From Escherichia coli (GTDB lineage Bacteria > Pseudomonadota > Gammaproteobacteria > Enterobacterales > Enterobacteriaceae), in the NCBI RefSeq assembly GCF_003334315.1, contig NZ_QOWR01000047.1: a DNA stretch of 37,104 nt. The stretch is one strand, 5' to 3'. The translations under genes and the position numbers were made by a program. Shown one piece after another: positions 18,831 through 21,347 of this stretch; the first letter of the stretch is position 1, and every line of letters starts with the position of its first letter. Under the pieces are notes generated by a model, which saw only the letters and a list, made by a program, of their open reading frames with translations, was not told where the DNA came from and did not search any database.

Positions 18831-19412
18831 ATGGCGGTTCAAAAGAATGTTATCAAAGGCATACTGGCAGGTACGTTTGCGCTAATGCTGAGCGGTTGTG
18901 TCACTGTGCCGGACGCCATTAAAGGCAGCAGTCCCACGCCGCAACAAGATTTAGTTCGGGTGATGAGTGCGCCGCAGCTGTACGTTGGTCAGGAGGCACG
19001 CTTTGGTGGCAAAGTGGTTGCGGTACAAAACCAGCAAGGGAAAACTCGCCTGGAAATTGCTACCGTACCGCTGGACAGCGGAGCCAGACCGACGCTGGGA
19101 GAACCTTCTCGCGGTCGCATTTATGCCGATGTGAACGGTTTTCTGGACCCGGTGGATTTCCGTGGACAACTGGTTACGGTAGTCGGGCCAATCACTGGTG
19201 CGGTTGACGGCAAAATCGGCAATACGCCCTATAAATTTATGGTGATGCAAGTAACGGGTTACAAACGTTGGCATTTAACCCAGCAGGTGATTATGCCGCC
19301 TCAGCCGATTGATCCATGGTTTTATGGCGGTCGTGGCTGGCCCTATGGCTACGGCGGATGGGGCTGGTATAATCCCGGCCCCGCGAGAGTACAAACAGTT
19401 GTAACTGAATAA
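18831..19412 (+). CDS. yeaY: Slp-family outer-membrane lipoprotein YeaY
   Basis: 193 aa; lipobox LMLSGC near the N-terminus and Gly/Trp/Tyr-rich C-terminus. Confidence 0.85.
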
Positions 19413-19433
19413 TTGCTTGTTTTTAAAGAAAAA

Positions 19434-19458
19434 GAAACAGCGGCTGGTCCGCTGTTTC
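19434..19458 (+). terminator. weak hairpin downstream of yeaY
   Basis: GAAACAGCGG-CTGGT-CCGCTGTTTC stem-loop, but with a poor U-tract. Confidence 0.35.
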
Positions 19459-19527
19459 TGCATTCTTACGGTAAAGATAAAAATAAATAGTGACGCGCTT
19501 CGCAACCTTTTCGTTGGGTAATTATCA

Positions 19528-19544
19528 AGCTGGTATGATGAGTT
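19528..19544 (+). promoter_or_regulatory. FadR-operator-like site in the fadD promoter
   Basis: AGCTGGTATGATGAGTT, about 70 bp upstream of the fadD start, resembles the FadR consensus as I recall it (ANCTGGTCNGACNTNTT). Confidence 0.45.
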
Positions 19545-19616
19545 AATATTATGTTAACGGCATGTATATCATTTGGGGTTGCGATGACGACGAACACGCA
19601 TTTTAGAGGTGAAGAA

Positions 19617-21302
19617 TTGAAGAAGGTTTGGCTTAACCGTTATCCCGCGGACGTTCCGACGGAGATCAACCCTGACCGTTATCAATCTCTGGTAGATATG
19701 TTTGAGCAGTCGGTCGCGCGCTACGCCGATCAACCTGCGTTTGTGAATATGGGGGAGGTAATGACCTTCCGCAAGCTGGAAGAACGCAGTCGCGCGTTTG
19801 CCGCTTATTTGCAACAAGGGTTGGGGCTGAAGAAAGGCGATCGCGTTGCGTTGATGATGCCTAATTTATTGCAATATCCGGTGGCGCTGTTTGGCATTTT
19901 GCGTGCCGGGATGATCGTCGTAAACGTTAACCCGTTGTATACCCCGCGTGAGCTTGAGCATCAGCTTAACGATAGCGGCGCATCGGCGATTGTTATCGTG
20001 TCTAACTTTGCTCACACACTGGAAAAAGTGGTTGATAAAACCGCCGTTCAGCACGTAATTCTGACCCGTATGGGCGATCAGCTATCTACGGCAAAAGGCA
20101 CGGTAGTCAATTTCGTTGTTAAATACATCAAGCGTTTGGTGCCGAAATACCATCTGCCAGATGCCATTTCATTTCGTAGCGCACTGCATAACGGCTACCG
20201 GATGCAGTACGTCAAACCCGAACTGGTGCCGGAAGATTTAGCTTTTCTGCAATACACCGGCGGCACCACTGGTGTGGCGAAAGGCGCGATGCTGACTCAC
20301 CGCAATATGCTGGCGAACCTGGAACAGGTTAACGCGACCTATGGTCCGCTGTTGCATCCGGGCAAAGAGCTGGTGGTGACGGCGCTGCCGCTGTATCACA
20401 TTTTTGCCCTGACCATTAACTGCCTGCTGTTTATCGAACTGGGTGGGCAGAACCTGCTTATCACTAACCCGCGCGATATTCCAGGGTTGGTAAAAGAGTT
20501 AGCGAAATATCCGTTTACCGCTATCACGGGCGTTAACACCTTGTTCAATGCGTTGCTGAACAATAAAGAGTTCCAGCAGCTGGATTTCTCCAGTCTGCAT
20601 CTTTCCGCAGGCGGTGGGATGCCAGTGCAGCAAGTGGTGGCAGAGCGTTGGGTGAAACTGACCGGACAGTATCTGCTGGAAGGCTATGGCCTTACCGAGT
20701 GTGCGCCGCTGGTCAGCGTTAACCCATATGATATTGATTATCATAGTGGTAGCATCGGTTTGCCGGTGCCGTCGACGGAAGCCAAACTGGTGGATGATGA
20801 TGATAATGAAGTACCACCAGGTCAACCGGGTGAGCTTTGTGTCAAAGGACCGCAGGTGATGCTGGGTTACTGGCAGCGTCCCGATGCTACCGATGAAATC
20901 ATCAAAAATGGCTGGTTACACACCGGCGACATCGCGGTAATGGATGAAGAAGGATTCCTGCGCATTGTCGATCGTAAAAAAGACATGATTCTGGTTTCCG
21001 GTTTTAACGTCTATCCCAACGAGATTGAAGATGTCGTCATGCAGCATCCTGGCGTACAGGAAGTCGCGGCTGTTGGCGTACCTTCCGGCTCCAGTGGTGA
21101 AGCGGTGAAAATCTTCGTAGTGAAAAAAGATCCATCGCTTACCGAAGAGTCACTGGTGACTTTTTGCCGCCGTCAGCTCACGGGATACAAAGTACCGAAG
21201 CTGGTGGAGTTTCGTGATGAGTTACCGAAATCTAACGTCGGAAAAATTTTGCGACGAGAATTACGTGACGAAGCGCGCGGCAAAGTGGACAATAAAGCCT
21301 GA
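19617..21302 (+). CDS. fadD: long-chain-fatty-acid--CoA ligase FadD
   Basis: Start placed at in-frame TTG 19617 ([14 protein letters not shown]...) giving 561 aa; AMP-binding motif [12 protein letters not shown]. Confidence 0.93.
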
Positions 21303-21320
21303 GCGTTAAGTCAGTCGTCA

Positions 21321-21347
21321 GACGCCGGTTAATCCGGCGTTTTTTTT
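21321..21347 (+). terminator. intrinsic terminator downstream of fadD
   Basis: ACGCCGG-TTAAT-CCGGCGT hairpin followed by seven T. Confidence 0.6.

Follow-up and report, generated by a model that had tools for sequence, protein, structure and literature searches.

The 17-bp sequence AGCTGGTATGATGAGTT, found upstream of fadD in the 37,104-nucleotide stretch of Escherichia coli DNA analyzed here (the window), is almost certainly the promoter-proximal FadR operator of E. coli fadD. This element is already known and belongs to the textbook picture of the gene. Its characterization within the E. coli fad regulon goes back to 1992, and it serves in fatty acid biosensors and synthetic switches. Our assignment was based on sequence identity to the characterized site, a statistically significant motif match, the location of the site among the promoter elements, and deep conservation. 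For FadR binding and its reversal by acyl-CoA, for the transcription start, and for the magnitude of the in vivo effect, we relied on the literature. A sequence-only reading of the window had pointed to a FadR-operator-like site in the fadD promoter. The 17-mer turned out to be the site contained in a published probe, and both a weight matrix and the conservation in 110 species agreed with this identification. The features of the region are listed in Table 1.

Table 1. Features of the yeaY-fadD region, in window coordinates
Feature	Position	Strand	Basis or remark
yeaY	18831..19412	+	Slp-family lipoprotein, 193-aa ORF; upstream border of the intergenic region; ORF list and RefSeq annotation
Hairpin after yeaY	19433..19459		11-bp stem, 5-nt loop; terminator scan
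Distal published FadR site of fadD, GGCTGGTCCGCTGTTTC	19442..19458	+	Inside the fadD-FadR1-F probe; about -115 to -99
CRP-cAMP box, AGTGACGCGCTTCGCA	19489..19504	+	Centered at about -60.5, a class I activator position; 2 mismatches to TGTGA-N6-TCACA
Probable -35 hexamer, TTATCA	19522..19527	+	Inferred from the published start and the 16-nt spacing to TAATAT; 4/6 matches
Promoter-proximal FadR operator of fadD, AGCTGGTATGATGAGTT	19528..19544	+	Sequence, published probe, matrix, conservation
Direct repeat GTTAA-N6-GTTAA, ArcA-box-like	19542..19557	+	2 matches in the window versus 0.07 expected
-10 region	19544..19552	+	Inferred from the position relative to the published start; TAATAT (19544-19549) or TATTAT (19547-19552)
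fadD transcription start	19557	+	Published position, 60 bp before the start codon (PMC3460868, after Black et al. 1992); the base is A
fadD	19617..21302	+	Regulated gene, long-chain-fatty-acid--CoA ligase, 561 aa, TTG start; RefSeq annotation

The window was collinear with E. coli K-12, with an overall identity of 99.6%. The yeaY-fadD intergenic region (204 bp), together with the start codon, was 100% identical to that of K-12 MG1655, and a 351-bp query around the site found matches in all 5,426 of the 5,426 complete E. coli genomes, the features involved being yeaY and fadD. The FadD protein encoded in the window also showed 100% identity to K-12 FadD. Because of this identity, and because the K-12 annotation gives 561 aa, the start of fadD was placed at the TTG at 19617-19619. 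An in-frame ATG at 19551, which opens a mechanically called ORF of 583 aa inside the promoter, was rejected as spurious given the 561 aa of K-12 fadD. Across the species examined, the fadD start codon was TTG or GTG in 110 of 110 cases and ATG in none. Measured from the TTG, the 3' edge of the 17-mer lies 72 nt upstream and its 5' edge lies 89 nt upstream, so the distance of about 70 bp given in the sequence-only reading is true for the 3' edge. The part of the K-12 gene order that is collinear with the window did not include fadR, a gene that E. coli carries elsewhere.

The site was then compared with the published fadD operators. The electrophoretic mobility shift assay (EMSA) probe fadD-FadR2-F, a 36-nt oligonucleotide with the sequence GTAATTATCAAGCTGGTATGATGAGTTAATATTATG (PMC4259882, Table 2), had an exact and single match in the window, at 19518-19553, and this match contains AGCTGGTATGATGAGTT. 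The probe was shifted in a dose-dependent manner by wild-type FadR, and no shift was obtained with DNA-binding mutants (PMC4259882). A second probe, fadD-FadR1-F (GAAACAGCGGCTGGTCCGCTGTTTCTGCATTCT; PMC4259882, Table 2), likewise had a single exact match, at 19434-19466. Two FadR sites in the fadD promoter have been validated experimentally, with concordant EMSA and DNase I footprints, and FadR binding there was abolished by 25 to 50 µM oleoyl-CoA (PMC3460868). The two sites were reported to be 68 bp apart (PMC3460868); the gap between them in the window was 69 bp, a one-base difference in how the boundaries are defined. With an exact probe and an intergenic region 100% identical to that of K-12, the 17-mer does match a characterized FadR site. 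It is presumably the operator that Black et al. in 1992 called OD1. In that study, footprints at fadD were reportedly found from -13 to -29 and from -99 to -115, and the names OD1 and OD2 are said to come from there. These coordinates fit the window exactly if transcription starts at A19557.

How well the 17-mer agrees with the FadR motif was assessed in several ways. A review gives the consensus of FadR operators as a 17-bp imperfect palindrome, aaCTGGTCnGACC(T/A)Gtt, and the site matched 12 of its 16 specified positions (PMC9329746), which bears out the earlier statement that it fits the consensus at most positions. It is nevertheless a degenerate operator, with 4 mismatches to the 17-bp consensus and a poor right half-site (GATGAG versus GACCWG). 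A search of the whole window with the strict consensus AACTGGTCNGACCWGTT, allowing up to 3 mismatches, gave zero matches. Because the site has 4 mismatches, this search was too strict, and a weight matrix was therefore used; several genuine FadR sites would likewise fail the strict search. The matrix was built from five sites in the probe table of PMC4259882 (fadL sites 1 and 2, fadBA, fabA, and fabB), and both fadD sites were excluded from it. In this position-weight-matrix scan, which the sequence-only reading had proposed as a check, the 17-mer scored 13.7 bits and ranked 2nd of 74,176 positions on both strands.

Could such a match merely resemble the FadR consensus by chance and play no part in regulation? 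The 4 mismatches, and the failure to find the site when up to 3 were allowed, would fit this explanation, and so would the several matches of 10 to 13 bits that the five-site matrix gave inside coding regions of the window. Against it, matches as good as 13.7 bits are expected 0.33 times per 37-kb window and about 0.002 times per 204-bp intergenic region, and the core pattern CTGGTNNGANNNGTT, made of the positions common to the site and the consensus, occurred once in the window versus 0.09 expected. The identity to a FadR-binding probe and the constant position in all 110 species (see below) already refute chance, and its probability is next to nil.

The top match of the matrix in the window was found elsewhere. 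The sequence CTCTGGTCTGACTTCAA, at 1197-1213 on the plus strand, scored 16.9 bits, versus an expectation of about 0.05 such matches per window. Its CTGGTCnGAC core is perfect, and it is similar to fadL site 2, which has been validated. It lies between yebO and yobF, about 95 bp beyond the yebO stop codon and about 560 bp upstream of yobF. By its matrix score, this candidate FadR-like box would be stronger than the fadD site. A literature search for FadR together with yobF, cspC, or yebO found no direct link. Two RNA features were also recognized in the window with Rfam, both on the plus strand. The cspA thermoregulator family (1751-2211, 136 bits) covers the yobF-cspC region, and the small RNA SroD (21261-21346, 115 bits) overlaps the last fadD codons and the fadD-rnd intergenic region.

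Next, the site was placed on the map of the fadD promoter. Relative to the published start at about 19557, the proximal site extends from -29 to -13 and the distal site from about -115 to -99. The proximal operator thus takes up the spacer that separates the -35 and -10 elements and touches the -10 region, a layout classically associated with the blocking of RNA polymerase. The -10 region was near-invariant in the 110 species, and TATTAT reads TATAAT in most of them. The probable -35 hexamer, TTATCA, was below the threshold of the sigma-70 promoter scan. The sole proposal of that scan, TTAATA-18-TATCAT at 19543-19572, was rejected: transcription from it would begin about 20 nt downstream of the published start, and its -10 element was only moderately conserved across species.

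Other regulators also have sites in this promoter. A validated class I CRP site has been reported for fadD (PMC3460868), and it would correspond to the box listed in Table 1. The CRP pattern was not enriched over chance in the window (17 matches versus 15.7 expected); therefore, the assignment of the box rests on conservation and the literature. The ArcA-like direct repeat shares 3 bases with the 3' end of the operator, extends over the -10 region to the published start, and was nearly invariant across species. An ArcA site at fadD has been described that overlaps one of the FadR sites by one bp (PMC3460868), and the repeat is probably this site. Downstream of the start, the first 18 nt or so of the fadD 5' untranslated region (19558-19575) varied more than any other part of the intergenic region, in the aligned Escherichia sequences as well as across genera. 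This contrasts with the near-invariant block formed by the operator and the -10 region and with the conserved segment preceding the start codon (19575-19616).

The conservation of the operator was examined in a survey of species with one genome per species. The anchor was the conserved N-terminal coding sequence of FadD and not the site itself, and the survey yielded 110 usable regions upstream of fadD, from Enterobacteriaceae and, in a few cases, Erwiniaceae. In 110 of 110, the best match to the matrix, from which the fadD sites were excluded, was at the orthologous position, 84 to 90 bp upstream of the start codon. The mean majority fraction per column of the 110-species alignment was 0.98 for the site, versus 0.82 for the whole intergenic region, and the most conserved 17-nt windows of that region were those covering the operator, followed by the CRP box. 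The majority variant, AACTGGTACGCTGAGTT, was found in 94 of the 110 species; the variants seen in Escherichia differed from it at positions 2, 9 (the central one), and 11. In the aligned Escherichia sequences, variation in the 17-mer was almost absent, while the bases directly following the transcription start varied freely. There were two exceptions: one E. coli strain had a G-to-T change at position 2, and a record labeled E. coli, standing for another Escherichia species cluster, had a T-to-A change at the central position. Spacers between promoter elements are normally free to vary, and the conservation of the 17-mer therefore indicates a bound protein.

The distal site behaved differently. 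Its matrix score was 5.0 bits, a weak match at rank 68, and it lies in a hairpin with a predicted RNA folding energy of -21.6 kcal/mol (z = -3.8), which is probably the terminator of yeaY. The 5-nt loop of this hairpin, CTGGT, is exactly the core of the distal FadR site. Across species, the arms of the stem were conserved and the loop was variable, and the CTGGT core was kept in 24 of 110 species, belonging to Escherichia, Salmonella, Klebsiella, and a few other genera. Within E. coli, the core read CCGGT in both of the ST95-like strains aligned. A repressor site at about -100 has been called surprising in a review, which added that its role was never tested in vivo (PMC9329746). A variable core in a hairpin loop fits this remark on the -100 site (PMC9329746).

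Published data on the relative strength of the two sites appear to disagree between two papers of the Feng laboratory. The 2012 paper describes a fadD "site 2" with a more than 10-fold-weaker affinity (PMC3460868), and the 2014 paper attributes a "relatively high affinity" to "probe 2," which contains the 17-mer (PMC4259882). No statement on how the two sites compare in affinity was found in the literature on OD1 and OD2 that was consulted, including PMC8187666. On sequence grounds, the matrix scores (13.7 versus 5.0 bits) and the conservation favor the proximal site as the stronger one.

This question bears on a further explanation, in which the conserved block would be mainly the core promoter together with the ArcA operator, FadR binding there would be secondary, and the distal site would carry out the regulation by FadR. 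In favor of this, the repeat GTTAA-N6-GTTAA runs from the 3' end of the site through the -10 region to the start; the numbering of the weaker site in the 2012 paper may mean the proximal one (PMC3460868); and repression of fadD by FadR is modest (PMC3460868), with a derepression of only 2- to 3-fold upon deletion of fadR (PMC3460868). However, the conserved block reaches upstream across all of the CTGGTA half-site (19530-19535), a segment outside both the ArcA-like repeat and the -10 region. The distal site, with its low score and a core kept in a minority of the species (24/110), is about 100 bp upstream of the start, and the probe with the proximal site was described as having a relatively high affinity (PMC4259882). 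We consider this explanation very improbable, and it was rejected, as was a chance likeness. The 17-mer is thus retained as the promoter-proximal FadR operator. As for the distal site, we make a tentative suggestion, which falls a little short of even chances: only the proximal operator may represent the ancestral, selectively maintained control of fadD by FadR in Enterobacteriaceae, and the distal site may have arisen in some lineages as a by-product of the yeaY terminator, with little or no regulatory contribution.

The published data and the promoter geometry give the following mechanism. The imperfect palindrome is bound by a dimer of FadR, a winged-helix regulator of the GntR family. Judging from the geometry of the promoter, FadR bound from -29 to -13 would fill the spacer between the -35 and -10 elements and so exclude RNA polymerase. 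Imported long-chain fatty acids are activated by FadD, and the resulting long-chain acyl-CoA binds the C-terminal domain of FadR. FadR carrying acyl-CoA then leaves the DNA, and fadD is derepressed about 2- to 3-fold. Since the inducer acyl-CoA is made by FadD itself, this constitutes a positive feedback on fadD. Activation by CRP-cAMP through a class I site and anaerobic repression by ArcA add further layers of control to the same promoter.

The analysis serves as a positive control, in that a reading made from sequence placed the site to the exact base, with coordinates in agreement with the published promoter map. The species survey adds a small refinement, namely, that the position of the proximal site is fixed across 110 species and that of the distal site is not. 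This contrast between the two sites is relevant to a point brought up by the 2022 review, namely, what the site at about -100 does in vivo (PMC9329746).

Compared with the proximal fadD operator of E. coli K-12 (Black et al. 1992; Feng & Cronan 2012, PMC3460868; Zhang et al. 2014, PMC4259882), the site in the window showed no difference: it is the same element in another strain, upstream of the same gene and at the same distances from the start codon and from the distal site. It shares with fadL sites 1 and 2, fadBA, and fabA/fabB the 17-bp layout, with a CTGGT or CTGAT left half and a GA(C/T) right half on either side of a central base (PMC4259882), and with the other fad genes the position of the repressor over the core promoter (PMC9329746). 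With respect to the number of FadR sites, fadD and fadL have two each and the other fad genes have one (PMC3460868). The right half-site of the fadD proximal operator is more degenerate than that of fadBA (ATCTGGTACGACCAGAT) or fadL site 1. Unlike at fadD, FadR activates rather than represses at fabA and fabB. The site CTCTGGTATGATGAGTC in the promoter of fadR, which we take to be an autoregulatory FadR site, belongs to a separate locus outside the window. It has 14 consecutive bases, CTGGTATGATGAGT, in common with the proximal operator of fadD (promoter sequence in PMC7041290).
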